Positions 500-24,125 of a stretch of 64,000 nucleotides of DNA are shown one piece after another. Under the pieces are notes generated by a model. It ran no database searches. It was not told where the DNA came from and was given only the letters and a program-made list of their open reading frames with translations. The stretch's first letter is position 1; each line of letters opens with the position of its first letter. The translations under genes and the position numbers were made by a program. The DNA comes from Massalongia carnosa (lineage: Eukaryota). Location: NCBI GenBank assembly GCA_965645245.1, contig OZ287075.1, forward strand, positions 558,001 through 622,000, read 5' to 3'.

Positions 500-3400
500 A
501 ACCCCCCCCCACCCCGCCCCCACCCCCTCCTCTCCGCCACCATCCCACCTCTTCCAACTCCCCCCTTCCCCTAGCCTTCTCACCAACCCCCCATCTCGCC
601 ACCTCTTCCCCCTCCCCCACTGCCACCGCCGCCACCAAGGTGGTAGCTAGCGGCGCGATAAGCGCGCGGGTTCAAGCCGAGGGGATGCGCGAGCGTGGAT
701 TGTAGGTGCGCTTGCAGGGCGGCGAGAGGGGGGTGAGGAGGGCGAGGGAGCCGGAGAGGGAGGTGAGGAGGATGAAGCGGGTGGAGGTGATAGATAGAGT
801 GGAGAGGGGGATGAGGGGAAGGAGGGTGAGCGTGGAGGGATAGTGGCCGGTGTGGAAGGAGGCGAGGGGGAGGAGACATTGGCCGGCGAGAGATTTGGGA
901 TCTGGGGGGTTCGAACGCGCGGGGGGTAAGTTTGGAGGTTATTCATAAGGGAGGGGGGGAGAACACGCACCGTCTGGGTCGAACTGTACAATGTGGATGT
1001 TGCAGTCCGCGTCCGCGACGACGATATAGAGCTGCTTCCCATCGGGCAAGAAATCGGCAGTGACAACGTCGATGGGCCGTGGAGATTTGCCGAAGAGTCG
1101 GAGTTGGTAGGGTTCCTCCTGGATCAGTTCATATCGTTATTAGCTCGTTCGGTCACGGATTTTTCTTCTGTCGGATTTTCACTTTCCGGGAAGACAGCTA
1201 GACGGAAAAGCATAAGACGTACGTAGTACCCCGCCAGCCAAACCCCTTTGATCACGTCCCCCGTCAAACACAGCCCCGTCCCCTTGAGCTCCTTCGCAAC
1301 CGTAACATAACATTGCATGTCCATAAACGCAACCGGCAGCAGCGATCCATCCTCCTTCAGCCCGCGCACCAGGCATTTCTGGCCCTGCGCCACGAGCAAG
1401 AACTCCTGGCTCCCGATCTCGGACAGAGCGGTTACAGCCCCTTTCACCTCCTCCTTGGCGATAAGTTTCAGCTTCCGCCCGGTTTTCGGACGGCCGGGAT
1501 GCGGGACCACGTCTATGATGGCGAAGATGTAGATGCGACCGAGGAAGGGGAGGTCTTCACCGCGGACGAGGGCGGTGCCGACGGCGACGAGTTCTTGGCG
1601 GGCGTGCGAGTGTTCGGATGTTTCGAGCGTCATCGTCTGAATGCACATTATTACCTCTGCTGAATCGAGTTCGTGTCTATGAAAAAGCATTAGGGTGACA
1701 TTGGGATCCGCTGAAGAGGTTGGGGTGGCTTACTTGTCGATTATAGACCAAGTTTTATGGTCTAAGAGCTTAATTGATCCCTGATCGATTTGAGGTGGGA
1801 ATGACGTGTCTGTAACAGATATCATGAGCAGATTTCATCAGTAAAGTCAGAAAGAGAGATGAACCATCGTGATTTGTGTCACCCTGCACATCGTCCTCTG
1901 GCAGTTTGAAATCTGATGATTGGCTTGTTCCAAGGACGTAGGCGTCCTTCCCTTCGTGATAATCGAGTGCTTGGATCTCTTCGCCTACGACAGCCCTACG
2001 AGTGACCCAGCCAGTGGTGTACTGGCAGTCTGAGGGCAACTGTGCCGAAAAAGTTGAGCCCTAGCTTGACCATGAGTATATTCAAAATCTATAGCAATAA
2101 GGACTTACGCTGTTATCGATATAGAGAAAGCCCTTCTTGCATTTAGATGTGCTAAATCTGCTCAGACTTCGAACAGGACCTGTTCTTAAATTGATGATAT
2201 GAGGTGAGCTTGCAGCTGGCTTTATAACGAAACTGGGAGATGGTCCCGGCATAAAAACCGTGCTATAATTATCAAGGTTCGGTATTGCTCGCAGTGGCTG
2301 TACTCGACTTTCTTCCTCATCATAATCTATGTCCGTTACCGAATTTGAGAACTGAGGGTTCGACAATTTCAAAAACCTCAGAGCGGTGTCTCGGCTTCCT
2401 TCTATTAGGGACTGGTAGGGTTGATATATGATGAGCTCGTCATCGACGGAGCGAAGCTGAACGAATTAGTATTTGCAAAAGAAGTCGTGAAAGCAACTTA
2501 CAATTAGATAAGGAGACTTGTGAGTGGCATCTCCAAGCTCTGCTAGGAGAATCTCTTTCAAGGACTCCCTGGCCGACGAACGACGAATCGTGAACTCCGT
2601 GAACAAGAACGGCGGAAGGAAACTGAGATCATCTGCACAATATACTGGCTTTCTTAGATTTGAAAGACGGAATATCTTGTAAACTATTAGTGCAAGTTTA
2701 AATCGTAAAAACAACTCGGTGCAACGACGCATCAGAAACAAGAGTAAGCAAATTGAATCGACCTGTAAGCCATCAACGCTGCTTAATAGCAATAGCAATA
2801 CATTGCCTGCTTCATCTTCGCTATCATCTTCAGACTCCAGGCGCAGTACATCATTCGAATCCTCATATAGAGATCCAGAAAGCCACTTAGTTTCCGCGAT
2901 TGCTTCCCTCCTCTCCACTTCATCCAAGTCGCCGCTTTCGTCCGCACGCAAAATCATCACGCTAAAATCATCTCGTATTAGGAGCACGTAAGGATCAGAG
3001 AAAGTTGCGCTGATGACTTTTGGCTCAGCTCCTGTAGCATCGTCGATCATGGGGAAGATCTGGGCGAGATCGAAGTCTTTTAGGTGTTAGCTTGATATTC
3101 GCCACAGCAACGCATGAGTTCAAGCATGGGATGTGAATGCACATTTAAAGACACTATGATATCATAACTGCACAATGGATCATGGATTTCATTGATGCTA
3201 TAGACATGAAAAGAGAAGAGACAAAGGAATTTTGGTTCTTATCGTCAGTCAGCAATCGGAGTTGAAGATTTGAGTCTATGATATACAAGAGCTTTTCTCC
3301 ATCATCGAATGAAATACCCGCCTTATATAGATAAACTTTCCAGTCACCATACTCGAGGCCACAACTCAGATCGAATAAACCATAAAGCAAAGGAAGGACC

Positions 3401-5432
3401 AAGGTGAACTTACCTCCATCGTAGGTCCTTAATTCGCTCGACAAAACCTGAATAATTCGCGTTTCACCATTTAAAGTCCCTACCTCAATGGTCCCTCCCG
3501 CATCGGGATCGAAATCAGCGTCTCTAATCTCTTCAAGGCCAGCGAATGTGATTTTATATGCTGTCGAGCGCTCTTCCGTTTTCTCCATCTTTCGTGACGC
3601 AATGATGTACTTGTCATTATCAGCGGGACTTGGAGCATCGCCATTGATAGATTTTGCAGAGGCACCGTCAGACGCTTGTTGAGGACAAATTGACCAAATT
3701 GCATATGCGTTAGGCATCTTGAGCTGATTTACCGTTTCTGAGTTCATCTCCCTTTGATATATAGTCAGTCCTCCGGCTCTATCACTGCCACTTGCAACAA
3801 TCAACTCGAGTCTAGGTGGCTTTGCATTTGAGCATTTGCCATCTTCATTCCATCGATTGATGTTCTTTGACAAAGCAATGTCTTTCATAGGACCTGAGTT
3901 TTGCAATGCATCGTGGACCCGAAAGGAGTAATCGTCTCGAATGTCTTCCTCAGAAGGCAGCACCGATTGGTTCAAGGTTTTCTCGTCAGACTTGACATCA
4001 GAGTACAAATCGTCGTCATCCTCAAAGTCGTCATCGTCTAGATCAAGTGCTTCTTTATGTATCGGTGTCAGTGTTGACTCGAAAACGCGGTCGTTTGGAT
4101 TTGTCCGATTTGCGCGACTAGCCTAGAATAATCGAGTCCACTGTCTCACTTCCAACAAACATCCTTCCTCGTCCAATCAAAGACGCACATGAAACCTCGG
4201 CGAGGACAGCGCTTCCTTCATTCAGGCGATCAATGCGGCGCACTAAGAGCCCAGATACCGACCTATCATCAATCTTGAAAGTTAACACGGCAAGTTCGCC
4301 GTTGTTCAGAATGATTAGTAGCTCTCGATTATCTATTCCAAGTTGCTCAACCACACAGTATTTCAATCTCAACCTCAGATCCGCTTGATCAAGCATAGCA
4401 AAAGTTGTAGAGTTTTTCGCAAAGCTATTGACAGCAACACCATTGATTTTCTTCGCTTGATCGACATGAATCATTTCATTACCTCCAAGGAGCAGAGCCC
4501 CATCAAACGGTAGCGGTAGCGGCGCTACTTGGAACAAGTCATTTGAAAGTCCGTTGACCGATAGTAAGGTTGTAGAAGCTTGCTGTTCAAGATCAAGGGT
4601 GAAGACTGTGTAAGATAAAGTATCACGTCGCTCATGTAACAAAGCTGCAGATACTCCAAGCTGTGAAGAAAGAACCCCAAACGTCGGCTCTCGATACTCA
4701 TACAGAAATGCGAAATGGAGCGGATGAAACAAGATAGGGTCCAGGACCAGAAAAGAAAGAACAAATGATACGGCATAGGGGGTCTTATCCCTTGCATTTA
4801 TTTTTTTGAATGCGACCATACTAGAATCGAGCCCTTCGCCATCAACTTCTGTGTCAAATTCGCTCATGACAAGATCATCTCCAGCCTGATAAAACGGTAG
4901 GATCGCTACATGTCTTGACCCAAACTTCAACGCTGCACATCGACTGCCTGGATCTACGCTTAGATGGCTCACAGACTGCCCCGACTCTGGCTCCCATGGG
5001 CTACCTTGTAGGTCTTGTCGTTCATAAAGATGTATTGAAATTGTCGCGATGCTATATCGTTCAGGATCCCATTCGACTAGGCTGAGTTTGGCATCCCGAA
5101 GCGAGACCAGCAGAGCTTCGCCATCAGACTATGATTGCAGAATCTTTACACGAGCAATGGACGTGATGATGCCTGATAGATCATATTGAGCCACCAACAC
5201 CAATTTCGTCGTGTGCAGCCTTTCGTCTCGTTGCACCGACGAATCTGCAGTCGGATTCTGCCCATCAGCTTTTCTTGTACTGCTGCTGGCATTTGTGATA
5301 ATTGACTTGAGTGTGAATATTTGGAGAAGGGATGTTTTGGCAACGATGAGATTGTTTGCAGAAGGAGATAAAAATGGTAAGGAGAGTGAATGGGTGACAG
5401 ATATTGGGGGTTAACTGAGTGTAGCACTGCAT
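500..5432 (-). pseudogene. cft1: CPSF160/Cft1 cleavage and polyadenylation factor pseudogene (multi-exon)
   Basis: Start MQCYTQLTP at 5432. Recognisable segments: [26 protein letters not shown]...[64 protein letters not shown]. Disruptions: 1-nt loss in a C-run after codon 9, in-frame TAG at 5129-5131 and 4118-4120, and a frameshifting deletion near 725. The 3' end is approximate. Confidence 0.9.
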
Positions 5433-5782
5433 TTTCCTACATCAGTTCGTAGGCAAATCCGGTCGTGTTCGGATTTTGCATGGCAAGGAATGAAAGCATA
5501 AGATATTGATACTTCAGGATACTTTGTAAACACACGTGACTGACATACTTCGGAGGGAACGGCCCGTGATTTGACACATTTTCTTACATCACTTGGATAT
5601 GTCGACCTCTCAACCGGGCGTGGCTATAACCAACAGAAATGACGTTTTTAGTCACGTGTTCCAGCAGAAATCAACCCCGCCGAATGTATGAGTTCTAACT
5701 ATAATCCCGACCGTGCCACTTTCTTCTCTGTCATTCTTACACAGATCGCAGACCGAGTTTTCTCTCGGAACCGGCATTGGCA

Positions 5783-7715
5783 ATGACTCTCATCCAGTCT
5801 GCTCTCATCTGGGTTGTCTACGCTGTGGTCATTGCTCTAGTCGTTGCCGTTGCTTCAATCTTTGTTTACGTTTATCAAACCCCTCGAGAACGGTCTATCT
5901 CGATGACGATCGTATCGATTTTCACTCTAACATCGCTGCTTGCCACGGTGCTTCTCTTGCCTGTTGATGTTGCATTGATGTCGTCGACGACTTCATCAAA
6001 ACTGGGGAGGCGAAAGGATTGAGCCACAGGTGATCATGTGGACAGTATCCTACTCACTCTCAAGATTGTCTATTACACTCTGTATTCACTCGATGCGATC
6101 CTATGCCTGATTGTGGTACCATTCACATATTTCTGGTACGAGGAACACGACGAGGTTGCCACAGAAGAGGGGAACCAGACGATTGATACACGGTTTTGAG
6201 ATGCGTTCAAGTATACCATTGAGTTCATTGCTTTGATGATCATCGTATTCCTGGTTGACTTCTTTGCGCCTGTGGCCAAGGATCACAAAGGGCGCCATTA
6301 TGATCTTGAGTTTTTCAAGCATATATTGAATGAAAATCGTAAATCCCGTCTCCCTAGACCTTGACTCCTTGCTAAGAATCCATTAAACAGACGGAGAACG
6401 CGCCTTAACATTCAGGCTTGGGCTGCTCATCACGGTCGGCACGTTAGTCTATGTTCTGTATACTGCGTCTGGATTTGCTTTGCTACCGGTTGCCTTGATC
6501 AAGTCTGCTCCAGCGATCTCTGCACCAGCTCTGAGAGCCAGTACTGCTTCAGCTCTCGACCAAAACCGTGAACGTCAACGCCAGCTAGAAGGACGCAATG
6601 CCGGGCGAGATGATAATATATCACCTAAAGACCGAGAGAGCTTGACGCGCTCGTAAGGGAAGAGCGAACACTTGTGCGCCGTGAGTGCTTGGCCGCAGAA
6701 GCAAGTGGAGAGGGCCAGGGCTGAATCATAAAGACGTGGACGAAAATTGAGGCCGTCTTCCGCCCTCTCAAAGTGATTGGCGGACTTTTCCTCATGCTTG
6801 TTGCCTTGTTCATCTGGGTTTCGATGCTTTTGACTGGCATCGATAAAGCCAAGAACTCGATTTGCAAAAGCCACTGTGATTACATTCTCGATCACGTCAA
6901 CGTCTTTAATCCCATTAACTGGATATTCGTCATTTCCTCTAAGATCTTCCCGATCGATTATGTCGTCTTCCTTCTGCTGATCCTTTTCTTCTTCGCCAGC
7001 TCTGTCGTGGGCATCGCTGCGATCGGTATCCGCTTCCTTTGGATCAAGCTATTCCAGATTAGAAAAGGGCACACGTCGCCGCAAGCCTTACTCATGGCAA
7101 CAGTCCTGTTAACACTTATTGCGTTGGTGATGAATTACTCCTTGACTATGTTTGTTGCACCACAATACACACACTACGATCCGCAGACATACTGTGACCT
7201 ACCGTTCCGATATCCCACAGCCCAGCCGGACTATTCAACCCACAAGAGTAAAATCCGCCCATGTTCTGAACTCTCGACCTCTCAAGCCGCGCTTAATGTC
7301 TGCACACCTAGCGTTGTGAGCACATTTCTCGACAGTATTACTGCGAACTTTCCCTTTTTTTGGGATTGTATGTTTCTGAGCTCAGTTCGCTTTCTTAGGT
7401 ATGCATTATATCCCTGCACTTTGGTACCCAAGTTCTGCCGGCATTTAAAACATAACTATGGATATCTGATTTAACTGCTGACGTCACTTTGAAACAGCCG
7501 TCTATATTGTTGTCTTCCTCACAACCCTCTTCCGCACGCCTAAGCTTGATGAATACACGCTAGACCAGGATGCCGAAGAAGATGAGGAAGAAGGGTTGCT
7601 TGCGAGCACAGGGAGACGATTCGGGGCTACGTGGCAGGATATCACAGGAAGAGCAAAGAAAGGAAACACGGGCGGGAATGGGTTCCGAAACGGGGAAGAA
7701 GCGGAGGAAGAGTAG
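5783..7715 (+). pseudogene. LMBR1-domain probable lysosomal cobalamin transporter pseudogene
   Basis: Multi-TM protein with [39 protein letters not shown] and a C-terminal [25 protein letters not shown] at Trp positions 6020, 6197, 6722 and 7377; 1-nt frameshifts near 6635 and 7360; introns near 6339-6390 and 7399-7496. Confidence 0.85.
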
Positions 7716-7940
7716 GACGATATGAAAGGATGACTAACGCAAGTAATTTACGAGAAAAAGAAGATTCGTGTACAAATTGTGTGGCTTTTGTATTTTATGC
7801 AGTATGTTGAGGGGGGCAGGGAGAGCGAGTGTAAGCATTCTCTTATATTCGCATCGATTCCCCGGACATGTACACAATCATGGAGTTGTAGGAGTTGGTA
7901 TTAGGGGTTTATGAAGGATGAATGGACGAGGTCTTATAGT

Positions 7941-8222
7941 TGTAACTAGATCTATTCTTTCCTCATTGTTTCGTATTATTCAAAAGTAACGAATGATGAG
8001 AGGAGCGGGGAGATACTGAAATGAAGTGATGTGAAGAGAAAGTGCGATGTAGCTAACTTGTAGATCGGGAAACCAAAGGCCAAAGAACAAGAGGAGAAAA
8101 GAAGAGAAAAATACAACAATAAAGAAAACACAAGATGATACGAATAATTATAATACCTCACCACAGTAAGACATTTATGCACAATCATCAGCTTCAGTTT
8201 GGGTGATTCGACCCTGCGTCAA
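7941..8222. mobile_element. Putative solo LTR
   Basis: Begins TGTAAC and ends CGTCAA (degenerate CA end). Flanked by the 5-bp direct repeat ATAGT at 7936-7940 and 8223-8227. Confidence 0.5.
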
Positions 8223-8437
8223 ATAGTCGATAGATAGGGGGCGGAAAGCACCTGTCATGATGGGTTGATTGATTGACTGCCATTTATCGAAAACGGTTTT
8301 CAGCTGAGGCACACGCGGCTACAACTACTCTTCAAACATGTCCCCGAACCAAAAACCTAGATCTGTCTCCATTATTTTGCTATATCATTCCAGACAAAAG
8401 CCACCGCTACACAGTATTGAGGTTGAGATCGACTTTG

Positions 8438-11400
8438 ATGGCTGACCCACTCTCCGTCGCAGGAAGCGTGGTGGGGGTGATCTCGCTGGGAATCCAAGTC
8501 ACGCTGTCGCTAATCAACTTCTATAACTCGTACAAATGCCAAGATTCAGACCTCGTCAGCATAACCAAGAAGCTTGAAGGCCTCCTGGAAATCTTCCAAT
8601 GCCTTGAAAAGACCTTATTAGATCGCAATTTTCAAGCGGACGAACGAAGCTTGATCAAGAGCATCGAGACGTCGATCGAAAATTGTGATGAGTTGATTCA
8701 GGAACTGCAGGATGAGTGTCGGAAGTTTAGCAAAACATCAAAGGGAATCAAAGCTGCAGTTAGAGTTGCGGGACATCGAGCAACATATCCTTTCCGACAG
8801 AGCACCCTGCAGAAACTCGATGAAGATATTGGTGAAATACGTGCCAAGCTCTCCTTTACGCTGGAAATATTGCAGCTTAAGGACACTCAAAGAATTCAAG
8901 ATGATGTTGCTGAAATAAAAGCGCTTTTAGAGTTGGTCAAAACCAGTCAAATTTCATTAGATCTTCGTGACTGGCTAAATGCACCTGATGCCACCGTCGA
9001 CCACAATGCAGCCTGCGCAAAGAAACATCCTGGCACGGGATTGTGGCTCATCAAGAGCCTTGAATTCTCAAGATGGTTGACAGAGGGGAACTCCATTATG
9101 TGGCTGAGTGGATTCGCGGGATCTGGCAAGTCAGTCTTATGCTCAACAGCGATACAATTCACTCTGCGGCACCGAAGATCCGACCCCAGCGTCGGCATTG
9201 CATTCTTTTATTTTACCTTCAATGATGAGTCGAAACAAGATGAGTCGAGTATGTTACGAGCACTGCTGCTACAATTGTCGAATCAGCTCCAAGACGGCTA
9301 TGCAGATCTTACCCGGCTGCATGATTTATACAAATCCGGCATACCTCCATGGCCACTACTAGTTGAGCATCTCCGGCGCTTGATTCAGAGGTTTCACCAT
9401 GTTTATATCTTATTGGACGCGCTTGACGAGAATCCTCGAAATGGATCACGAGAGGACGTGCTTAATGTCTTAGAGACAATGCGAAACTGGGACGTACAAT
9501 GTCTGCATCTCTTCGTCACAAGTCGAGATGAACCGAATATTCGCGAGTCTCTCGATCTTTCTTTCACCCAACGAGTCGTAATGCAAAATGCAGGGATAGA
9601 CAAGGATATTGCCGACTTTATATCTAGTCGGCTTAATGAAGACCGAAGACTCCGAAAATTTTTGCCATACCGTGACAAGATTCACAAAACATTAGTCAAA
9701 GGTGCCAAAGGCGTGTAAGTGAATAACGATTAAGAAAAAGTAGCATCAACAGTTATCGACTGACAGCTCAATAGATTTCGATGGGTCGAATGCCAATTTA
9801 AGTCTTTGCAGTCGTGTCCTCGCAGTGAATATCATCTCAACAATGTGCTCAGTTCATTGCCTCAATCACTAGACGAAACGTACGAACGAATGTTGTGTAA
9901 CATCGACGATTATTTGATTGAAGATGCTAAACGAATCTTGACCTTGCTTTGCTTTGCTTCAAGGCCATTAACAATACAAGAACTTATCGATGGTGTCGCC
10001 GTCGAAATCAACGGCTTCACAGGACTGAACCGTAAACGTCGACTGCAGGATTCCGACGATATTCGCAATATATGTCTAGGTCTCATCGATATCGGTCTTG
10101 ACGCTGATCAAACGACTGAGACGTATCATGAAGAAGAGTTGACACCGACCATTCGAATTGCTCATTTCTCTGTCCAGGAATATCTGGAATCCGAACGTAT
10201 CCGGCATCAGAAGGCTGTAATATTTAGTTTAACAAGCGTTACTGCAAATGTCGAAATTACAAAGATTTGTTTAATATATTTGCTTGAACATGACCTTTCA
10301 AGCTCAAATCTGAATCAGAGTCTTCTTGAGATATTCCCACTGGCTCAATTCGCAGCCATGTATTGGTATCATCATTATCAAAAAACGAAAAATTCCGCTC
10401 CCGAATTGAACGATTTTATCTTGAAGTTATTCCAACATCAGGATTCATTTGCGACTTGGGTTAAGTTGCACGACATGGATCAACCCTGGCAAACTTTTAT
10501 TGACTTCAGTCGAGAATTGAGCAAGATCGCAGCTCCAGTCTATTATGCGTCATTATTAGGACTTGATCAGGCTTTGTCCGAATTAATCAATAGTGAGCAA
10601 ATAGAGAGTAAAACGATACCAGCCCTATCACTTGCATCTACGTTCAGGATACCAAAACAAATCAACGCTCAGGGTGGACATTATGGCAACGCACTGCAGG
10701 CGGCGTCATCGGAAGGTCATGATCAAGTAGTGCAGATGCTGCTCGACAAAGGAGCTGATGTCAACGCTCAGGGTGGACATTATGGCAACGCACTGCAGGC
10801 GGCGTCATCGGGAGGTCATGATCAAGTAGTGCAGATGCTGCTCGACAAAGGAGCTGATGTCAACGCTCAGGGTGGACATTATGGCAACGCACTGCAGGCG
10901 GCGTCATCGGGAGGTCATGATCAAGTAGTGCAGATGCTGCTCGACAAAGGAGCTGATGTCAACGCTCAGGGTGGATATTATGGCAACGCACTGCAGGCGG
11001 CGTCATGGAGAGGTCATGATCAAGTAGTGCAGATGCTGCTCGACAAAGGAGCTGATGTCAACGCTCAGGGTGGATATTATTATGGCAACGCACTGCAGGC
11101 GGCGTCATCGGGAGGTCATGATCAAGTAGTGCAGATGCTGCTCGACAAAGGAGCTGATGTCAACGCTCAGGGTGGACAAGATGACAACGCACTGCAGGCG
11201 GCGTCATCGGGAGGTCATGATCAAGTAGTGCAGATGCTGCTCGACAAAGGAGCTGATGTCAACGCTCAGGATGGACATTATGGCACCGCACTGCAGGCGG
11301 CGTCATTGGAAGGTCATGATCAAGTAGTGCAGATGCTGCTCGACAAAGGAGCTGATGTCAACGCTCAGAATGGACATTATGGCACCGCACTGCAGGCGGC

Positions 11401-12919
11401 GTCATCGGAAGGTCATGATCAAGTAGTGCAGATGCTGCTCGACAAAGGAGCTGATGTCAACGCTCAGAATGGACATTATGGCACCGCACTACAGGCGGCG
11501 TCATTGGGAGGTCATGATCATGTAATGCAGATGCTGCTCGACAAAGGAGCTGATGTCAACGCTCAGGGTGGACAAGATGGCAACGCACTGCAGGCGGCGT
11601 CATCGGGAGGTCATGATCATGTAGTGCAGATGCTGCTCGACAAAGGAGCTGATGTCAACGCTCAGGGTGGACAAGATGGCAACGCACTGCAGGCGGCGTC
11701 ATGGGGAGGTCATGATCAAGTAGTGCAGATGCTGCTCGACAAAGGAGCTGATGTCAACGCTCAGGGTGGACAAGATGACAACGCACTGCAGGCGGCGTCA
11801 TCGGGAGGTCATGATCAAGTAGTGCAGATGCTGCTCGACAAAGGAGCTGATGTTAACGCTCAGGGTGGACAAGATAGCAACGCACTGCAGGCGGCGTCAT
11901 GGAGAGGTCATGATCAAGTAGTGCAGATACTGCTCGACAAAGGAGCTGATGTCAACGCTCAGGGTGGATATTATGGCAACGCACTGCAGGCGGCGTCATC
12001 GGGAGGTCATGATCAAGTAGTGCAAATGCTGCTCGACAAAGGAGCTGATGTCAACGCTCAGGGTGGACAAGATGACAACGCACTGCAGGCGGCGTCATCG
12101 GGAGGTCATGATCAAGTAGTGCAGATGCTGCTCGACAAAGGAGCTGATGTCAACGCTCAGGATGGACATTATGGCACCGCACTGCAGGCGGCGTCATCGG
12201 AAGGTCATGATCAAGTAGTGCAGATGCTGCTCGACAAAGGAGCTGATGTCAACGCTCAGAATGGACATTATGGCACCGCACTGCAGGCGGCGTCATTGGG
12301 AGGTCATGATCAAGTAGTGCAGATGCTGCTCGACAAAGGAGCTGATGTCAACGCTCAGGGTGGATATTATGGCAACGCACTGCAGGCGGCGTCATCGGGA
12401 GGTCATGATCAAGTAGTGCAGATGCTGCTCGACAAAGGAGCTGATGTTAACGCTCAGGGTGGACAAGATAGCAACGCACTGCAGGCGGCGTCATGGAGAG
12501 GTCATGATCAAGTAGTGCAGATACTGCTCGACAAAGGAGCTGATGTCAACGCTCAGGGTGGATATTATGGCAACGCACTGCAGGCGGCGTCATCGGGAGG
12601 TCATGATCAAGTAGTGCAAATGCTGCTCGACAAAGGAGCTGATGTCAACGCTCAGGGTGGACAAGATGACAACGCACTGCAGGCGGCGTCATCGGGAGGT
12701 CATGATCAAGTAGTGCAGATGCTGCTCGACAAAGGAGCTGATGTCAACGCTCAGGATGGACATTATGGCAACGCACTGCAGGCGGCGTCATCGGGAGGTC
12801 ATGATCAAGTAGTGCAGATGCTGCTCGACAAAGGAGCTGGTGTCAACGCTCAGGGTGGACAAGATAGCAACGCACTGCAGGCGGCGTCATCGGAAGGTCA
12901 TGATCAAGTTGTTGAATAG
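8438..12919 (+). CDS. Fungal NLR-like STAND protein: HeLo-like/SesA-type N-terminus + NACHT + about 23 ankyrin repeats, C-terminally truncated by an LTR
   Basis: N-terminus MADPLSVAGSVVGVISLGIQV, HPGTGLW, Walker A GFAGSGKS, Walker B YILLDALDE, FVTSR. Intron 9715-9774 (GTAAGT..CTGAC..TAG) joins KGV/FRWVECQ. Also LPQSLDETYERML and AHFSVQEYL. The stop at 12917-12919 lies inside the LTR. Confidence 0.92.
10661..12909 (+). repeat. Tandem array of 22 full + 1 partial 99-bp ankyrin-coding units
   Basis: The unit NAQ-x6-ALQAAS-xx-GHDQVVQMLLDKGADV repeats with near-identical DNA. Unit 5 has one extra TAT codon. Confidence 0.97.
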
Positions 12920-13145
12920 GTCTATGACTATGGCTATATGACTATGTAAAGATAGGGGCCTGTATGACCATGATGTTAAGGATGCAGAGTTGCTACGGAG
13001 TGCAGAGCAATCTGTTCCTTTTATCTTGGTCACCTCTGCTAAGCGAGATGATAATAGTTTATCCGAGCCTCTATGCGATTAGATTAGATCTTATCTTATC
13101 TAATCTATAGGCTAAGCAATGCTGGTAGAAGTTGAACATTCAACA
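12910..13145 (-). repeat. Copia 3' LTR (236 bp)
   Basis: TGTTGAA...TTCAACA termini; adjacent to the PPT; homologous to 18712-18998. Confidence 0.9.
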
Positions 13146-16100
13146 CCCTCCCTCAAGTTCTGCCAGTACTTGTTCTGATGATCAAAACCGCGCCGCGCGG
13201 TGTGAACTCAACTAGATGAATTCATGTGAAGTTGTCTGATGAAGAGAAGACTTTGACGTGGGTAAGCGGCTTGGTCAGTCCGTCCGCTACCATGTGTTCT
13301 GTTGAAACATAGGTAAGGTCTATTCGACCCTCTGTGACCTCATTCCGTATGAAGTGATGCTGAATGTCGATGTGCTTAGTCCTTGAATGTAAGACGGGAT
13401 TATTGGCTAGTGCTATAGCACTCTGATTATCACCTTTCAATGCTATAGCGCCTTCCCTTTCAAGTACATTCACTGTCGGAGTAGCATCATCCTGCATCAG
13501 GCCGAGTTCTGTCATCAATAAGCGTATCCATATGGTCTCCTTAGCAGCTAAGGTGAGTGCCATATATTCGGCTTCTGTGGATGAGAGGGCAACGGTTTTC
13601 TGTCTTTTTGAGGCCCAACTGATTGGTCCATTGTTCAGCATGAAGACGTATCCGGAGGTGGACTTGCGGTCTTCCTTGTCACCGGCCCAATCAGAATCGG
13701 AATAGCCCTGATAGACAAATCTCCGCCACCAAAGGTAATGCCTCTGTCTCTGGTTGCACTGAGATATCTGAGAATCTGCTTGGCTGCCTCCATGTGTGAT
13801 TTGCCAGGATTTTTGGCATGTCGGCTGACCACTGAGGTCGCGTAGGCAATGTCAGGCCTTGTTTCTATCATAGCAAACATGATGGAGCCGACGATTGCTT
13901 GATACTGTTTAATGTCTGATTCTGAGGCCTGGGATTCATTTCTGAATAGACTGCCTTCTTTCATTGGGGTGGTGGTAGTTTTCGCGTTCTGCATATGAAA
14001 CTTCTCCAGGACCTTTTCGATGTAGGTAGATTGAGATAGTTTGATTGTTCTGTTATCGCGATTTCGTTCTACCTTTAGGCCTAGATAATGACTGATTGAG
14101 CCCATGTCCACCATCTTGAACGCAATGTTCAGTTGTTTCTTGACTTCAGATATCATAGGAGATCCCTTTGGACCTATGATGTTCAGATCATCAACGAAGG
14201 AGGTAACAATTGGACCTCTTATTCCTGCCGAAGAGGAGAAGATACTATGATCTGCGTGAAGTTTGGACAGACCCAGCTTGGTAAGTAGAAATTCGGATAG
14301 CCTTTCATACCATAGGCGTGGAGATTGTTTCAGGCCATAGAGAGCCTTGTTCAGTTTGCAGATCATGCCCGCTTTTTCATATCCTTTGGGCATTTGGACG
14401 TAAATCAATTGATCTATTACCCCATACAAGAATGCTGTGACGACATCAAGCTGTTCGATGTCCAAGTCATGATGAGCTGCTATGGCAAACAATAATCGGA
14501 AGGCCATTGGTTTCACTACGGAGGCATAGGTCTGTTCGAAATCTACTCCGTACTGCTGGAGATAGCCTTTCACCACCCATCTGGATTTGTACCGTGTGAT
14601 ATTTCCATTGACGTCTCGTTTCAGTTTGTATACCCATTTTCCACTGAGAGCAGTATGATTGGGCTCCATATCCTCGGTTCTGACAAGAGTCCATGTTTCG
14701 TTCTCGAGAAGACTGTTGTGTTCATTGTCCATGGAACGACTCCAGCTTTCTGAATGTGGACCTTTCATAGCTTGATGGTATGTCTGAGGTTCAGCTATGT
14801 CGAGTTGAGACAGTGCGTCATAGTCTTCCAATCCTGATGATCCTTCCTTTTCCAAGGTTCTGGCAAGAAGAACGAGTGGATCCTCTGTGTCTATGTCATC
14901 GTATGTAGGAGTATGATTGAGTTCATCTAAAGCTGTGTCTGATAGAAGAGACAATGCGTGTTCTATCTGAGCATGCTTTCTGGGTCTGCCACGTCCACGT
15001 TTTGGAATCGTTGTGGGGGATGAAATGACTGTTGATTTTGATGGAGTGACTGTATCGGGAGTCATGATGACCTCGTATGTAGGAACGTTGGTCTGGTCTT
15101 TGGAGATGGCGTCTTCGTGAATGCGCAGATCTTTGACCCTGATGACCCTGTAGTCCTTTTCCAGAAAGACTCGATAGATCGTGCATCCATCGTACCCACA
15201 CAAGACTCCACGTTGGGCCCGAGGTAGAAATTTGGCCGATTTGCTGTTGGCACCTTTGCGTTCTTCCTCATGAATGAGGACATACACGGTTGATCCCAAC
15301 ACTCGCAGATGATTCAGAGGAGGTGACTTTGACTCGTAAATTTCAAATAGGGTCTTTCCGGATAAAGCATTTGTAGGTCTGACGTTTTTTGTGTGAACCA
15401 TAGCTAAAACCACCTCTGTCCATAGGTAGTCCGGAATGCCTCCTGCAATGATGGTACATCTAGTCATGTCCATGATAGTTCTGCCTGTTCATTCAGACAC
15501 ACCGTTTTGTTCCTGTGAATACGGTGCGGAGGGTTCAAACGTTATCCCTTCTTTCAGGAACCAATCATCCGATTTCAGACTTCGAAGTTCTGTGCCGAAA
15601 TCAGTTCGAAAGATGTTTATTGGCTTGCTCTTTCCTGTCTTGTTCTGAGCTAGACTGTAGTATGTCAACAGATGGTCAAACCATTCGCTCTTCTTGATGC
15701 CTGTATACACATGAGTGTATCTGCTGGCATCGTAGGTGAAGGTAAAGAAGTACTGTTCTTCAAGAAGTCCTGCTGGTTTGATGGGTCCTACTAGATCGGA
15801 ATGAACCTTTTGAAAGATGCCTGTTGCTCTCTCCTGAGGTGTCCGGTTGTATATCTTAGTGGCCTTTCCGAGTTCACAGGATGAACAGTACCAATCTTTG
15901 TTCACGTTGTCTGAGTACGACACATCGAGTCTTTTCAGAAAAGCTCGGCAGGTAATCAGGTTTAAATGACCAAGGCGCGCATGCCATGTTAACAGGTCTG
16001 TTATGGCTGACGTGTGGTAGACTGATGTGTTCGGCCACTGAAAGGTGCTCTCATCTGTCTGCATAAGATGTGTAGCCACGTCTGGGGCGTCCAAGGTCTT

Positions 16101-17839
16101 TAGTACAAAGGTTGTATTGACTCTTGGCACATAGCCTATGATGTTCTGACTGATCCCGTTGAATAGGGTCCAGTTAACATTGTCATAGTAGATGTTGTTT
16201 TGGTTGAGTAGTGCCAGACTGACGAGGTTCACTGGACACTGGAATGAAAAGAGCGTTGATCAGTATTAATACTGACGAGGGTGAGTCGTCCTGTAGTGCC
16301 AACGTTTTCCGGATCATTCCCCTCCCTGGAGACGTGCCATCTGATGTAGATCCTGCCAGACCTGTGGAGCGTGTTATGTAATTGATGAACGACGGCCTGT
16401 GATTGCATACGTGCATGTCCGCTGCGCTGTCTAGTAGCCAGGTGTCTCTGTTGAGATGGTTGATGGTCATGACCTTCTGTAGAGTGGTAGTCATGACTAC
16501 TGTGAGTCAACTGCTCACTGTAGGAGTTGTAGTGACTGTGGTGTCTGGAGTTGACGTGGTGACTTCTGGCTTGGAGTTCTTTTGTCTCTTGACCCTCCCT
16601 AATTCAGCCGTGTCTCCTCTCGCCCGTTTTAGATGGGGGAATTTCTGGAAACACTCATCTGACCAATGTCGTGTTCTGTTCCTATTTACACACTCTGGAA
16701 CGGTGCGGCTTCCGATAGGTGCTCTACCTCTGTTGGAAGCGCCAGTGTGAAAAGCCTTGACAGTTAGGTTTCGTGCATAGGCTATGAGGATTTTTGTTGT
16801 TTCCGAAAGGTTTGTGGTGTCGTGCGTCCAGTCCCTGCGGAGTTGTGCAATGAGCGGGTCATACTTGTCTGTGCAGTTACCAAGCAGCATTCCCTGCAGT
16901 ACAAACTCTATGGAGTCGACGTTCACCTTGACCTCTTCGATCAACATGTCCTTGATCTGATTGAAGGCACCGTCATACTCTGAACAGTATTGACTGACTG
17001 TGTTGAAGTCTCTCATCTTTTTCGTACTAACCCTCAAGATGACATCCGTGATGCTCATTGGTGCCACGTCCTGGAATCTATTCTTCAGAATGGCCCACAT
17101 CTCGGCAGCGGTCTTGTTATTGATGAGGTTGTAGTGACATGGTGCAACCAGTCCATGGATGATTCCAATAGCCTTGGTCATCTCGGTTTTCTGTCTGTTC
17201 TTATCATCCCGAAGTTCTTTGACGAGGATGCTGGTAGTAAGACTGGCCGGAGTAAACCCTGATACGATGAGGCTCTCTCTGATGGAGTCCAATGAGATCT
17301 CTGGTTGGGTTTCCAGAATGGCTGTGTCACAGTTATTCTTCAGCAGAATACCTCTGGTGTAACTAGCCCATGCTGAGTAGTGTTCCGAGTTCTCTAGAAG
17401 GTGAGGCTTCTCTGTGGAACTGTTGATTTCAGGAAGAGACATGATGAAGTCAGATGAAGAAGAGGTCTCTAGTAAACTTCTGTAGACTGAAAGGTATATA
17501 AATTTCTGAGATTGGTGCAGGAGTAGGATGTGCACTGGAATGAATGGAGGAGATGGGAATATGTGATCTAGTTATAGACAAAACATTTCCCTTCCTTTGT
17601 CATCAAACTGTGATGTTCCTTTCTTTGCCACAACGCTTGTACCCTCATGAAAGAACTCTCTTCAGATGGTGGAACTTTCACTTGGTGGTGTGGAGATAGG
17701 GGCTGTCGGAACCACGGGCCTGTTAAATGGAATAAGGTTTTTTCCGGATTCCGAATTTCCGATTGAGGCGTTCTGCTTAATTGAAGTCTGATTACTCCAT
17801 CTGTATACGCGTAGACTAGTCAGAAAGTCTGCTAATGAA

Positions 17840-18278
17840 TGATGCAGCAAGGATCAAACCTTGGAACTGAATTTCCGAAGTCTGTCTCTGGATCAAAGTA
17901 TGTTGAGTGGTGATGCAGCAAAAGTCAGAATGAAGTCTGCCCTTGGGTCAACGTCAGTTAATTGATGATTCAGCAGAAATCAGAGTTTCATGAGTGGTCA
18001 AGGCCGCGCTGCGCGGTTTTTGAACAAAACTCAGTGAAAAGGTCTGTTCCTAGGTCAAAGTCAAATGAATGATGATGCAGCAGAGGTCACTCATTGGAAC
18101 TGGTCCACTGGAGTCTGTCTCTGGGTCAATGTCAAATGAGTGATGATGCAGCAGAGGTCAAACCTTGGAGCTAGTCCACTGGAGTCTGCCTCTGGGTCAA
18201 AAGTCAAATGGATGGTGATGCAGCAGAGGTTAAACAATGGAATTGGTCCACTAGAGTCTGCCTCTGGGTCAACGTCAT
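17840..18278 (-). repeat. About 72-bp degenerate tandem repeats in the Copia 5' leader
   Basis: The motif GAGTCTGYCTCTGGGTCAA...TGATGCAGCAGAGGT recurs at about 72-bp spacing (18110, 18181, 18253), with decayed copies to the left. Confidence 0.75.
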
Positions 18279-18711
18279 CCTCCGGAGTGCCTCTCAGATA
18301 TTCGGGCATGAGAGCATTCTGATGGTCTGATATGAAGAGAATGTCTTCTGATGCTTGTAGTCTGGCAAAGAGCCTCTCTGCTTATGATGTAGATGATTTC
18401 AATGCTCTTTCTGATAACCCTTTGTAGGTAGGGAACGCTGGATCAGGTGACGTTCTTGTTAAACGTCTCTATCTGATTGAGAGGTTGTCATGATGTGCTT
18501 TCACGAAGCTGTTCAACTAGCTAGACTTGCGGGTGCGAATCCCGCCTGATTCAGGTCTGTAAACAAGTAGAGATTTAGTCTTTGCATTGTCCGTCTAGTT
18601 CTTTTCGAGAAAGGATAATGATGCTCAGCTAATGATTTTGCATCGTGATGCTGCGGATAAGAATTGCTTCGATTCCTGTATGATCGATAGCGCCCTTCCG
18701 GGCTCATAACC

Positions 18712-18998
18712 TGTTGAATAAGTCTATGACTATGGCTATATGACTATGTAAAGATAGGACCTGTATGACCATGATGTTAAGGATGCAGAGTTGCTACGAG
18801 CAATCTGTTCCTTTTATCTTGGTCACCTCTGCTAAGCGAGTGATTTCCGAGCCTAGGTTGCTTAATCCGCCACTAAGAGGGATTAAGTAACCGATGCGGC
18901 TAGACTAGATATGATCTTATCTAATCTATAGTCTAACCCTATCTGGTTCACTCACAGTTTCCATTGGTGCTCTGCTGGTAGAAGTTGAACATTCAACA
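18712..18998 (-). repeat. Copia 5' LTR (287 bp)
   Basis: TGTTGAA...TTCAACA termini; adjacent to the PBS. Confidence 0.9.
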
Positions 18999-20134: not shown

Positions 20135-21298
20135 CTAGATGGAGGTGCCCGGCGGCGCTCCGGATCGATGCCCTGGTTGACCTGTACGCCCAATGGGATG
20201 CCCAATTGAGTAGGGGTAGGAGTTTGTAGGATTCGTCTCGGCGACGACAGCACGTGGGACTGCTAGAGGGATGCCTTTTTGAAAACTGAGGTTCAAATTG
20301 AATAGTGAGGCCTGGGACGTCTGAAAGTATAGCTGAAACGCGTTTGATGACCATCTTCCGAGTCTCTGAATACTCTCATCCAGCATCCCGTGGTCGGCGG
20401 CGTGTTGTGCTGCTCCTTTTCTGAAGCTGTGTCCCGAGTATGCCGAGTCGTTGATGCCGACGGCTATCAGTCTCTTTTTCAGGGATGCTATGACGGAGGC
20501 TCTGGTGAATGCGGTGCCGAGACGAAAAAGCGGGGATGTAGATGGCTGAGGATCATTTCTGAAAAGACGCCGTAGTGCTGTCACGGGGCAAGTGCTCTCA
20601 TTGGTCGCTGCCAGCACTATCTGAACTCCTGAGTGATTTGTGTCTGTTTTGCTTCTTTTGAGACGTAATGTCGCGTATTGATCGTTCTCGGCGAATGAGA
20701 TGTCACCTCGTGTAGGTTTCAATCTCTGAAAAGATGTCTTCTTACGATCAGCGACAGTGTAGGTGATTTCCCCGAGTCTGAGGAACCCTGCCCATGCAAC
20801 TTTGAATGTCGCGTCGATGTTGAGGTCTTCGGCCGAATGAGCGGGAATACTGGTGATTTTTGTCAGTAATTCTTTTGAAATGGGTAGGCGTCTTCTTTTT
20901 GTCTGAGAAAAGATCCTTTTTCCCCCTTTCAGCATCAATTGAAGTCTCGGCCCCTCGAATGGGGTGAGGCCGTATCCTCGGTCTACATGGTATGATCTGA
21001 GGCCGGCGAGGTAGCTCGCTGCCGTCTCTGGTTTTATCTTTCCCTGCTTGGGTGTGCCGCCCCCGTATAGTCGACCGGCTAGCCATTCCTCGAGGGACTC
21101 GGTTGTTGCAGGCCACGACGTGCGTCCCGTCGTCGCGCAGAATGCCTCGTATGAGTCGATCGCCGTCCCGTACCCTTTTCTCGTGTCCGCCGAGTGTCCG
21201 TGCCAGACGAGACGTTTTACCAGGGCTGACCCTGGTGTGGAGGATAGGTAGGTGGAGGGAGGTTCATCGAATTGTATGGGTTCTGCCAATGAGGGCAA
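20135..21298 (-). CDS. Tyrosine recombinase of the YR retrotransposon
   Basis: Catalytic residues R (FLRLGE), K (LKRSKTD), HxxR (GHSFRKGAA), W (LGRW) and Y (AFQLY). N-terminal core-binding-like region (SYLAGLRSYH). No ATG at the 5' end of the ORF. Confidence 0.92.
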   Translation of the reverse strand: MPSLAEPIQFDEPPSTYLSSTPGSALVKRLVWHGHSADTRKGYGTAIDSYEAFCATTGRTSWPATTESLEEWLAGRLYGGGTPKQGKIKPETAASYLAGLRSYHVDRGYGLTPFEGPRLQLMLKGGKRIFSQTKRRRLPISKELLTKITSIPAHSAEDLNIDATFKVAWAGFLRLGEITYTVADRKKTSFQRLKPTRGDISFAENDQYATLRLKRSKTDTNHSGVQIVLAATNESTCPVTALRRLFRNDPQPSTSPLFRLGTAFTRASVIASLKKRLIAVGINDSAYSGHSFRKGAAQHAADHGMLDESIQRLGRWSSNAFQLYFQTSQASLFNLNLSFQKGIPLAVPRAVVAETNPTNSYPYSIGHPIGRTGQPGHRSGAPPGTSI

Positions 21299-22920: not shown

Positions 22921-22965
22921 GAATTCAGCTATTGAAGCTATTCTACTGCCTCCTGCACCAACCCC

Positions 22966-23979
22966 CTATTTCTTCGTTGGGCATGTCTTCTGGCCATGCC
23001 CAGCCGCGCCGCACGATTTACATTTGTGCTGTCGGTAGCACGACGGCCAGGTGCAGGTGCCGCTGTTGTACTTGTCGCAGATTTCCCCCGCTGCCTTCTC
23101 GGCCCTATCGGCCCTGTCTCCTCTCGGGGTCGGTCGCCGGGACGGCGGGGATCGTGAGCGGCGACGGCGTAGGACTGTGAGGGGGGTGCAGAATCGAGCT
23201 TGGAATTCGTCGGGCATTTTCCATTGGGATGCGTCGGATGGCTGAGACGCGATGATGTGAGTGTGGGTTTCGATGGCGAGGGGGAGGACTGCTTCCTGCC
23301 ACTCGTACACCTTGGCCAGCGTGAGGATTTTTCCGTGGAATGCCGACATGGTGGCGTGAAGCTGTTGACTCGATTTCCCGAAAAGACTGACCATGATCGA
23401 GGTGTAGTTGATGAAGCTCTCGGTCCAGACGTCATGAACTGTCTTTCCGAAATCTTTGTAGGTCCCGGATGCCTTTCTCAACCTCAAGGCGCCGTCTTCG
23501 ATGCCGATGCGGTCCTGATCCTTGTAGGACTCGTATTGCATGCCGTGCATGTGTCGGAGGCGGGAGAGGTTGATGGCTTTGAATTTATTTGAAAAGATCT
23601 TGATGATCTCGTCCTGTGGTAGGCCCGCGAAACGGGGTGCTATACTTCTTACTTCGAGAGGGATCTCACCTAGGTCCTCGTCGTCATCGCCGACGACACG
23701 ACTCGGCTTGCCAGCAGGAATGACGGCCGCTATTCGGGCGTCAGATTCTCGGCGCATGCAGTCGATTTCTAGCTGCATTTTTTCCACCTCCTTCTCGGCG
23801 ACCAATGCCTTGGACTCGGCAATTCTGGCCTCAGCCTCGGCCGCCTTCGCTTCTGCCTCGGCTTTCTTCTTTTGTAGGGCGAAGATTTGATTGGACTGGG
23901 CCTGCGTCAATCCGACAATCTCCTGGGAGTCGGGGACTATGTCGTCCATCGGGGTGCTTTGGGAACGGGTGTTCGTCAT
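22966..23979 (-). CDS. Gag-like ORF1 with coiled coil and C-terminal Cys/His zinc fingers
   Basis: Coiled coil KKAEAEAKAAEAEARIAE; C-terminal CDKYNSGTCTWPSCYRQHKCKSCGAAGHGQKTC; located upstream of the RT ORF. Confidence 0.8.
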   Translation of the reverse strand: MTNTRSQSTPMDDIVPDSQEIVGLTQAQSNQIFALQKKKAEAEAKAAEAEARIAESKALVAEKEVEKMQLEIDCMRRESDARIAAVIPAGKPSRVVGDDDEDLGEIPLEVRSIAPRFAGLPQDEIIKIFSNKFKAINLSRLRHMHGMQYESYKDQDRIGIEDGALRLRKASGTYKDFGKTVHDVWTESFINYTSIMVSLFGKSSQQLHATMSAFHGKILTLAKVYEWQEAVLPLAIETHTHIIASQPSDASQWKMPDEFQARFCTPLTVLRRRRSRSPPSRRPTPRGDRADRAEKAAGEICDKYNSGTCTWPSCYRQHKCKSCGAAGHGQKTCPTKK

Positions 23980-23986
23980 TGGGAAA

Positions 23987-24125
23987 AAGCACCGACAGCG
24001 AGGTAGGGGCACCGAGGACAACGTGAGGTCGACGACGAGTCAGTGAGATGGGAAAAGCAGCAAGCACTGACAGCGAGGTAGGGGCACCGAGACAACGTGG
24101 GGTCGACGACGAGTCAGTGAGATGG
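23987..24125. repeat. Two-copy tandem repeat of about 75 bp in the 5' leader of the YR element
   Basis: AAGCACYGACAGCGAGGTAGGGGCACCGAG...GTCGACGACGAGTCAGTGAGATGG at 23987-24051 and 24062-24125. Confidence 0.85.

Follow-up and report, generated by a model that had tools for sequence, protein, structure and literature searches.

Repeat-induced point mutation (RIP), known from Neurospora crassa and other Pezizomycotina, leaves its mutations in tracts on one strand, and CpC is its least favoured context in Neurospora. Clustered, strand-coordinated C>T changes at a short motif are also typical of kataegis and of APOBEC3G, which acts on CC and deaminates its 3' C (GG>AG). CpA is described as the usual RIP target in the RIPCAL article (PMC2621366). 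A TpCpG-specific, RIP-like hypermutation across transposable element (TE) families is described from Pucciniomycotina (PMC3318451), and Dim2-dependent C>T mutation at CpA in mitosis from Zymoseptoria tritici (PMC8016269). Among lichen fungi, classical RIP is reported from Cladonia rangiformis (PMC12542154) and Xanthoria (bioRxiv 10.1101/2025.11.25.690456), in both as AT-rich regions found by GC content or RIPper, and the TE-derived sequence of Cladonia lies mostly at 10–20% GC (PMC12542154). RIP detection in fungi relies almost wholly on CpA indices and AT-rich regions, which hypermutation of the first C of CCA (C*CA) would escape. In the article passages covered by our literature search, we found no report of a CpC- or CCA-dominant RIP.

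Here, we analysed a stretch of 64,000 nucleotides from Massalongia carnosa, a lichen-forming Lecanoromycete (the window), in which two neighbouring genes carry an unusual set of C>T changes.

One of two copies of a cft1/LMBR1 pair is inactivated

By tblastn of orthologues, segment 500–7715 of the window holds a head-to-head pair of cft1 and an LMBR1-like gene, both dead. A metagenome scan gave 15 loci, all from other species and at 47–69% identity, which we used for comparison of composition and synteny only; the same head-to-head order was found in L006–L014, and no window gene besides cft1 and LMBR1 was found in the flanks of the 15 loci. Exact look-ups matched 2 of the 7 pseudogene ORFs, each a singleton in its 90% cluster. 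An ankyrin array, also in the window, has variants at hypervariable codons in mixed contexts. The main parts of the segment and its lesions are as follows; the cft1 substitutions come from comparison with orthologues.

About 542–5434, minus strand: cft1 (CPSF-A/Cft1) pseudogene, from tblastn with Cft1 orthologues and Pfam CPSF_A and Beta-prop_RSE1_1st
1404, minus strand: cft1 G>E, Q[G>E]FL
2629, minus strand: cft1 G>D, [G>D]LSFLPP
3741 and 4546, minus strand: cft1 P>S
4005–4073, minus strand: cft1 frameshift, residues 1–697 lying in two frames in the window copy
4118–4120, minus strand: cft1 TAG for Trp (Trp in 78/90 orthologues), a CpA-type change
4266, minus strand: cft1 G>D, D[G>D]RSVSG
5129–5131, minus strand: cft1 TAG for Lys/Arg (K in 68, R in 19 of 93 orthologues)
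5435–5782, no strand: divergent promoter region common to both genes, with several 60–75 base indels between copies
5783–7715, plus strand: LMBR1-like pseudogene (lysosomal cobalamin transporter family), from tblastn with 117 orthologues and a gene model
6020–6022, plus strand: LMBR1 TGA for conserved Trp (113/116 orthologues)
6197–6199, plus strand: LMBR1 TGA for Trp (96/117), adjoining a G>D change at 6201
6627–6640, plus strand: LMBR1 frameshift between ...SPK and RELDAL (tblastn, gene model)
6722–6724, plus strand: LMBR1 TGA for Trp (86/115)
6879 and 6891, plus strand: LMBR1 GGT>GAT, C[G>D]YIL[G>D] (orthologue alignment)
7179, plus strand: LMBR1 GGT>GAT, Y[G>D]PQT (orthologue alignment)
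7355, plus strand: LMBR1 frameshift, one T too many in a T run, absent from the second copy (X2, X3, X4)
7377–7379, plus strand: LMBR1 TGA for Trp (88/88)

Both genes are real pseudogenes, as the initial annotation had held: in LMBR1 four conserved Trp codons have become TGA stops and the frame is shifted twice, and cft1 carries two TAG stops and a single frameshift. Every lesion listed there for either gene that could be placed was found in the sequence, including the CpA-type nature of the TAG at 4118. The TAG at 5129–5131 is not a C>T change, and the LMBR1 frameshift at 6627–6640 can be read as a probable one-base deletion within a run resembling CGAAGAGAG. Residues 1–697 of cft1 form a single unbroken HSP in L001–L004 and L006–L010, and the 3' third of the gene (about 542–1810) is only slightly damaged.

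A second form of the segment, read from contigs of four public runs (X2–X5, from three studies), was present in all four and differs from the window by 9–12% (68/748, 111/926 and 200/2172 bases different), which bears out the supposed duplication. Read depth of the window form and the second form was 829 versus 820 in X2 and 27.9 versus 29.9 in X4; in X3 it was 120–406 versus 426–466, an inequality that fits poorly with a fixed 1:1 duplicate. The limits of likeness and of one form of the segment were as follows.

7921, no strand: right limit of likeness between the copies, followed by 255 unlike letters in the other copy (X2, X3, X4)
5556–8115, no strand: deletion polymorphism removing the LMBR1 pseudogene, in a window-type X4 contig (joint 5555>8116, 3 + 2 other letters)

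Positions 500 (or lower) to 7921 thus make up one of two copies of the cft1/LMBR1 pair, whose head-to-head order is conserved. The second copy agrees with the orthologue consensus at all five informative non-synonymous differences among the 40 of 825 listed, and because it carries the consensus residues and keeps its reading frame where visible, it is presumably functional. Most of the divergence of 9–12% is ordinary. In X2, the window has A/T where the other copy has G/C at 281 places, with 249 in reverse, and transversions make up 147 of the 677 differences (about 22%); the near symmetry and the transversions mean that hypermutation accounts for just a minor share of it. In the small sample of 29 transitions listed, 12 are CpC-type, 7/17 and 5/12 by direction.

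A C>T signature with CCA as its motif

Changes were polarised against 93 cft1 and 117 LMBR1 orthologues, from searches restricted to the ‘longer’ length range. We counted codons with at least 80% orthologue agreement and took as denominator all C/G sites with a non-synonymous transition, so the signature is measured at one locus, with non-synonymous sites alone polarised. Conserved codons hold 41 changes that are unambiguous; 29 of these are C>T or G>A, and the remaining 12 may be ordinary lineage changes.

The dominant lesion proved to be C>T with a 3' C and not the classical CpA change, as proposed earlier: 23 of 168 CpC sites had changed, versus 6 of 421 in other contexts (CpA 4/161, CpG 2/129, CpT 0/131; Fisher odds ratio 11, p=8e-9). 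Varying the conservation threshold between 0.6 and 0.95 leaves the excess in place (p 3e-10 to 3e-5). The earlier sample had been drawn from conspicuous Gly, Trp and Pro codons; normalised by the sites at risk, the CpC enrichment stands beyond them, and V>M, A>T and V>I changes occur alongside those at Gly and Trp.

Resolved further, the preferred site is the first C in 5'-CCA (TGG>TGA when read on the opposite strand), changed at 18 of 74 sites versus 11 of 515 elsewhere. The preceding base also differs, with 16/125 changes at ApC, 5/147 where the mutated C follows another C and 13/38 at ACC; AC*CA is the strongest form (8 of 16 sites). All four LMBR1 stops were made by the C*CA process. The zone of these changes is as follows.

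2270–7379, no strand: zone of C*CA>TCA (TGG>TGA), defined by the positions of 23 CpC-type changes and three GG>AA doubles

Within this zone the CpC rate is 23/168, versus 2/72 in cft1 509–1810. The last CpC-type change (7379) lies short of the limit of likeness at 7921, yet the cft1 3' part, with its 2/72, lies inside that likeness. In composition, the LMBR1 coding strand has 22 TGG and 36 TGA, versus 32–40 and 16–24 in six relatives, and GG observed/expected ratios in bulk sequence are 0.76 and 0.88 versus 0.93–1.18 in relatives. In cft1 both GC and CC/GG are low but inside the relatives' range, and thus not diagnostic; the C-retention indices are not diagnostic either.

The signature is limited to the locus

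Classical RIP indices were negative in all 32 two-kb bins of the window (TpA/ApT 0.36–0.87; (CpA+TpG)/(ApC+GpT) 1.10–1.69), and no 1-kb bin fell below 39% GC. Four multi-copy TE families of the same assembly, analysed in members of at least 90% identity, show no CpC or CCA bias (CpC 13/578 versus CpA 23/604; C*CA 3/202 versus 58/1893 elsewhere). Their clusters have 59, 72 and 43 members, and 10 contigs share one identical TE helicase protein. The copia element in the window has no CpC bias either (1/49); its LTR pair differs by only 2 substitutions, and it is CpG-depleted (observed/expected 0.56–0.73). The idea that TE family alignments would carry the same signature therefore fails for the four families and copia alike. 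A search for a CC/GG-free relic found none in the window, only two mild segments, and one unrelated segment in the 15 relatives' loci. The signature is locus-limited.

Possible causes

The likeliest cause, at roughly even odds, is in our view a RIP-like hypermutation that acted lightly on a duplicated segment, was confined to this locus and had a non-canonical target. Of the two copies of the cft1/LMBR1 pair, the one in the window is the dead duplicate and the other is presumably the working one. Enzymatic cytosine deamination aimed at the duplicated segment, one strand at a time, would then have turned the first C of CCA into T at about one in four of these sites in the 2.3–7.4 kb zone, along a single strand across LMBR1, with the target read on the opposite strand as TGG>TGA and GGT>GAT. 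The duplication is a plausible trigger of the mutations, and a RID/Dim2-type enzyme would be a candidate agent.

The strand distribution bears on this reading and on its strongest rival. The initial annotation had placed the changes on both strands, which is right for cft1, whereas in LMBR1 the CpC-type changes are found at 14/55 sites on one strand and 0/31 on the other (p=0.0015), and 15 of its 18 C/G transitions are G>A on the coding strand. In plus-strand coordinates, with about 5.6 kb as the divide, the right side has 14 CpC-type changes, every one G>A, and the left side has 9, of which 6 are C>T. A one-off, kataegis-like cluster could produce such a polarity (14:0 and 6:3) if single-stranded DNA was damaged or deaminated during break repair in the common promoter region, since resection bares opposite strands on either side of a break, and 5'–3' resection is expected to give G>A to the right and C>T to the left. 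The restriction of the signature to about 5 kb and its absence from the TEs also agree with such an event. However, three of the left-side changes (3741, 4446, 4546) are on the wrong strand, we know of no single-strand deaminase or agent that prefers C*CA, and one-strand tracts are known from RIP too; we regard this explanation as unlikely.

Less probable still is a slow deamination of 5-methylcytosine during vegetative growth in a silenced, methylated duplicate, the motif then being that of the local methyltransferase. The mitotic C>T mutation at CpA that Dim2 promotes in Z. tritici (PMC8016269) is a precedent and means that C>T changes with a specific context are not necessarily premeiotic when they occur in repeats. 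The CpG depletion of the window copia (0.56–0.73) hints at methylation in this genome, but the strict one-strand pattern over 1.6 kb of LMBR1 is unexpected from symmetric slow decay, and the TE families lack the motif bias.

Ordinary pseudogene decay, following the general spectrum of the lineage with no targeting, is improbable. C>T is the most frequent change throughout, TE copies included (61 of 135 unambiguous variants), but at CpC it affects 2.2% of sites in TEs versus 13.7% in the pseudogenes, with a similar level outside CpC (2.6–3.8% in TE copies). CC+GG observed/expected is 0.95–1.11 in 6 of the 7 two-kb bins free of recognised genes (30–38 and 42–48 kb), and the 3' part of cft1 was spared (2/72).

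Assembly or consensus error is very improbable. At 7889 the window has T where every X2, X3 and X4 contig has C; against this, contigs identical to the window, with 0 other letters, run over 748–927 bases in X2 and X3 and 284–294 bases in X5, one of them spanning 3685–4464 with the TAG and five G>A sites, and a near-identical X4 contig has 4 other letters in 749 bases, so that the changes are not consensus errors. That the genes still work, their coding-strand G>A changes (TGA and TAG included) being undone in mRNA by A-to-I editing, could appeal to the 15 of 18 LMBR1 transitions that A>I would reverse, but is hardly credible given the three shifts of frame (one of which comparison with the other copy confirms), the loss of LMBR1 from the window-type X4 contig and an edited A that would follow G, the least favoured 5' neighbour in known A-to-I editing.

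Several agents were rejected on context. Guanine alkylation, whose O6-alkylG signature is G>A wherever a purine precedes the G (GG and AG), disagrees with 23/168 at GG and 0/131 for AG>AA (CpT context). For UV, the strand bias is opposite to that expected from transcription-coupled repair, and CpT is again 0/131. AID-type WRCY activity fails, as C before T is never mutated, and so does a Dcm-like CCWGG activity, since it is the wrong C and no GG follows. For APOBEC3G-like deamination, the mutated C has a 3' C and mostly an A before it, giving GG>GA and not GG>AG.

Returning to RIP-like hypermutation, a more general proposition is tentative and rates somewhat below even: a Lecanoromycete RIP-type defence in which a deaminase would act on the first C of CCA along one strand at a time, invisible to the indices and directed at duplicated housekeeping genes and transposons, with the window locus as a light, readable instance. 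The locus is a duplicated essential gene pair with recent loss of one copy, and thanks to its light mutation load and intact copy an alignment of both copies could yield the full trinucleotide and strand spectrum. If a C*CA-directed hypermutation is real, the scoring of genome defence in lichen fungi would change, and a cytosine-modifying enzyme of novel sequence specificity would be implied, one that turns every Trp codon into TGA.

Comparison with known systems

APOBEC3G changes the 3' C of CC, whereas the window locus is mutated at the 5' C (GG>GA), preferably after an A. The Z. tritici Dim2 system shares context-specific C>T change in duplicated or silenced DNA; it differs in its target, CpA versus C*CA, and one-strand coordination is not known to be reported for it. 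The Pucciniomycotina system shares C>T change at a lineage-specific, non-CpA trinucleotide (PMC3318451), but in another phylum, with another motif and TE-wide, in contrast to one gene pair and none of four TE families in the window assembly. The Cladonia and Xanthoria reports concern the same fungal class and a C>T defence as well, whereas the window never falls below 39% GC and its indices are negative.

RIP of Neurospora crassa and other Pezizomycotina is alike in that G:C>A:T change inactivates a duplicated, gene-sized segment and the 3' neighbour of the mutated C sets the specificity. In classical RIP the target is CpA, in the window locus C*CA/CpC, and the M. carnosa data differ further in their negative indices and in TE families without the signature. 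One-strand tracts are common to both.

Gene neighbourhood and lesions

The intact parts of the window find their best protein matches in Lecanoromycete (lichen-forming) fungi. Cft1 shares 75-76% identity with entries that the databases name Sticta canariensis and Pseudocyphellaria aurata; for the LMBR1-like protein the figure is 78%, with an entry they name Lobaria immixta. The two genes lie head to head, an arrangement that is kept in loci L006-L014 of related species from metagenomes and with which neighbouring locus tags in Psora, Lepraria, and Sarea are consistent. In the related metagenome loci L001-L004, LMBR1 and cft1 share a strand, with LMBR1 ~8 kb upstream.

Features of the window and lesions of the two genes
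About 542-5434, minus strand: cft1
5129-5131, minus strand: cft1 TAG, Lys/Arg in orthologues
4118-4120, minus strand: cft1 TAG, Trp in orthologues
Between 4073 and 4005, minus strand: cft1 frame change
5783-7715, plus strand: LMBR1-like gene
6020-6022, 6197-6199, 6722-6724, 7377-7379, plus strand: LMBR1 TGA stops, all four at Trp codons of orthologues
Near 6627-6640, plus strand: LMBR1 frame change
7355, plus strand: extra T in LMBR1, frameshift
8273-12919, plus strand: NLR gene (PigL_N, NPHP3_N/NACHT, ankyrin)
12910-18844, minus strand: copia element
Within the window, besides copia: a reverse-transcriptase element
Within the window: an element with DUF6589 and helicase
After the elements: Ndc80, Mcm10, galactokinase, a thiamine-pyrophosphate enzyme, and others

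Both cft1 and LMBR1 are broken, as the initial annotation had proposed; when 93 Cft1 and 117 LMBR1 orthologues were placed on the window by tblastn, with the best-supported frame taken per codon, stops and frame changes appeared in each gene. The first 697 Cft1 residues form one unbroken match in L001-L004 and L006-L010. Further stops in the six-frame translation were rejected as lesions, since they fall within introns common to relatives. Positions 1-640, at and past the Gly-rich C-terminal tail of cft1, contain long homopolymers and stretches of purines or pyrimidines (C runs, G-rich runs, CTT repeats).

Spectrum, motif, and strand of the changes

Codons were treated as conserved where at least 80% of aligned orthologues agree. 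LMBR1 has 349 such codons, 32 of them changed and 24 by an unambiguous single step (G>A 15, C>T 3, A>G 3, T>C 2, C>A 1), while cft1 (1860-5410) has 302, with 31 changed and 17 unambiguous (G>A 7, C>T 4, six transversions). Ambiguous (14) and multi-step (8) changes are left out of these counts; among the multi-step ones, three turn a Gly codon into AAN, i.e., GG>AA. Because biased sampling had been feared, the denominator was every C or G in a conserved, unchanged codon where a transition would alter the residue, oriented on the C strand. By 3' base, C>T changes number 23/168 at CpC, 4/161 at CpA, 2/129 at CpG, and 0/131 at CpT. The claimed preference for CpC thus survives normalisation to at-risk sites (odds ratio 11, p=8e-9 at the 80% threshold; p from 3e-10 to 3e-5 at thresholds of 0.6 to 0.95), and sampling bias does not account for the excess.

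The target motif extends beyond a dinucleotide. An A follows CC in 18 of the 23 CpC-type changes, and the rates by the following base are 18/74 for C*CA (the first C mutated to T), 0/22 for C*CC, 3/32 for C*CG, and 2/40 for C*CT, with 11/515 at all non-CCA sites combined. By 5' neighbour, they are 13/38 for ACC, 4/42 for CCC, 3/42 for GCC, and 3/46 for TCC, and AC*CA reaches 8/16. The complementary strand shows the C*CA change as TGG>TGA and (T)GGT>(T)GAT. Judged by their generally known defining motifs, alkylation (AG context 0/131), APOBEC3G (the opposite C of the pair is mutated here), and AID, UV, and Dcm-like methylation (the mutated contexts speak against each) were rejected.

Bulk composition, compared with that of relatives, is in line with the signature. 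The LMBR1 coding strand holds 22 TGG and 36 TGA in the window vs 32-40 and 16-24 in six relatives, and GG observed/expected is 0.76 and 0.88 vs 0.93-1.18; AGG/AGA, taken as a control, and CCA/TCA on this strand are inside the relatives' range. In the cft1 block, TGG/(TGG+TGA) of 0.38 and CCA/(CCA+TCA) of 0.29 are both the lowest among nine sequences. cft1 itself is low in GC and CC/GG, but both values lie within the range of relatives and are mostly natural.

The initial annotation had placed the changes on both strands, which stands for cft1 (6/46 vs 3/36, a split that is not significant) and fails for LMBR1, where all 14 CpC-type changes fall on the coding (+) strand as G>A (14/55 vs 0/31, p=0.0015). 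In plus-strand terms, changes are mostly C>T to the left of the shared promoter and all G>A to its right.

A second copy of the segment

Contigs of four public sequencing runs (X2-X5) from three studies were compared with the window at a likeness of at least 80%, and every run contained the window form. Assembly error, raised earlier as a possible source of the stops, is contradicted by pieces that match the window with 0 other letters over 748-927 bases (X2, X3) and 284-294 bases (X5); the X4 piece has 4 other letters in 749 bases. At 7889, the window has T and all contigs of X2, X3, and X4 have C, either a private difference or an assembly consensus error. In a window-type contig of X4, position 5555 is linked to 8116 through 22 other letters, so the LMBR1 pseudogene is deleted in that sample.

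A second form is likewise present in every run, with 68 differences over 748 bases, 111 over 926, 50 over 448, and 200 over 2172. In X2 and X4, its depth is about that of the window form (820 vs 829 and 29.9 vs 27.9, respectively). Across 900-8000 in X3, window-form depth climbs from ~120 to ~406 and the other form holds at 426-466, a gradient not seen in X2. Likeness stops at 7921, beyond which the other form continues unlike the window. Differences in X2 are nearly symmetric (A>G 168, T>C 113, C>T 131, G>A 118, transversions 147), so the divergence between copies is largely ordinary.

We examined 40 of 825 substitutions individually, and 20 fall in modelled codons (9 synonymous, 8 non-synonymous, 3 unclassified). 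Among these, the other form keeps the orthologue consensus residue (agreement of at least 0.5) at 5/5 non-synonymous sites (989, 1404, 2773, 2909, 4245), three of which are CpC-type changes in the window. The extra T that shifts the frame at 7355 is absent from the other form, and the indels examined within its cft1 coding sequence have lengths divisible by three. From these residues and the frame kept at the examined indels, the other form is probably the working copy. The copies differ by ~10% overall, but at conserved sites the window copy shows only 11 non-CpC-type transitions over 997 sites and 7 transversions, which suggests that selection acted on both for most of the time since they separated and that the loss of function is recent.

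Transposable elements and RIP indices

Four TE families of the same assembly were analysed (of the cluster members listed, copia 8/8, DUF6589 12/15, helicase 14/15, reverse transcriptase 15/15), using members with at least 90% identity and excluding those under 150 residues. Window codons were used to infer the base change behind each of 168 distinct variants from the family consensus; 29 ambiguous and 4 multi-step variants were left out. No CpC bias appeared among these members (CpA 23/604, CpC 13/578, CpG 13/456, CpT 12/457), nor a motif excess (C*CA 3/202 vs 58/1893 elsewhere). The same method applied to the window copia against 150 homologues gave no CpC excess (CpC 1/49, CpA 1/42), and the 3' part of cft1 gave CpC 2/72. 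Together, these controls indicate that the signature does not reflect the general genome spectrum, as far as TE copies record it, and does not mark these families among the members sampled. None of the 32 two-kb bins of the window gives a positive classical RIP index, and the window holds no CC/GG-free stretch.

The two copia LTRs (~140 bases) differ by 2 substitutions and 3 indels. The element has a single in-frame stop where homologues carry Arg, interpreted as a CGA>TGA change. Over 12-20 kb, the observed/expected ratio of CpG falls to 0.56-0.73 (about 0.9-1.1 elsewhere), a hint of CpG-directed decay or methylation. Young multi-copy elements lie at 20135-24039 (minus strand) and 25692-29038. 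Their 90% clusters are large (reverse-transcriptase ORF 59 members, DUF6589 ORF 72, helicase ORF 43) and the exact helicase protein is found on 10 contigs, which points to recent transposition with no effective repeat mutation of these families. The NLR ankyrin array (10662-12912) comprises 22 head-to-tail 99-base units, ~95% alike with a few hypervariable codons; on the NLR coding strand, bins 11001-13000 hold 3-4 CC per kb vs 89-90 GG, and TC is common.

Mechanism and relation to known systems

One of two copies underwent a locus-limited, motif-specific, and partly strand-coordinated C>T episode. We favour, with about an even chance of being right, a RIP-like deamination that would have been directed by the duplication at a non-canonical target, because the segment is duplicated, because specificity is set on the 3' side, and because tracts on one strand also occur in RIP. 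A rival is a break-repair single-strand mutation cluster centred on the promoter, whose expected polarity fits the right side but the left only in part. Another is slow 5mC deamination in a silenced duplicate, for which Dim2 in Zymoseptoria (PMC8016269) offers a parallel. Restorative RNA editing is a further, very unlikely alternative, and a general mutation spectrum is opposed by TE copies that lack the signature.

The episode is a candidate case of RIP. A full-text literature search returned no report of CpC- or CCA-dominant RIP, and papers on lichen fungi (PMC12542154; bioRxiv 10.1101/2025.11.25.690456) describe classical RIP. The episode departs from RIP in sparing the four TE families (members of at least 90% identity) and in its base preference, with CpA changed at 4/161 sites and CpC at 23/168, whereas it resembles RIP in that the 3' side of the C sets the specificity.
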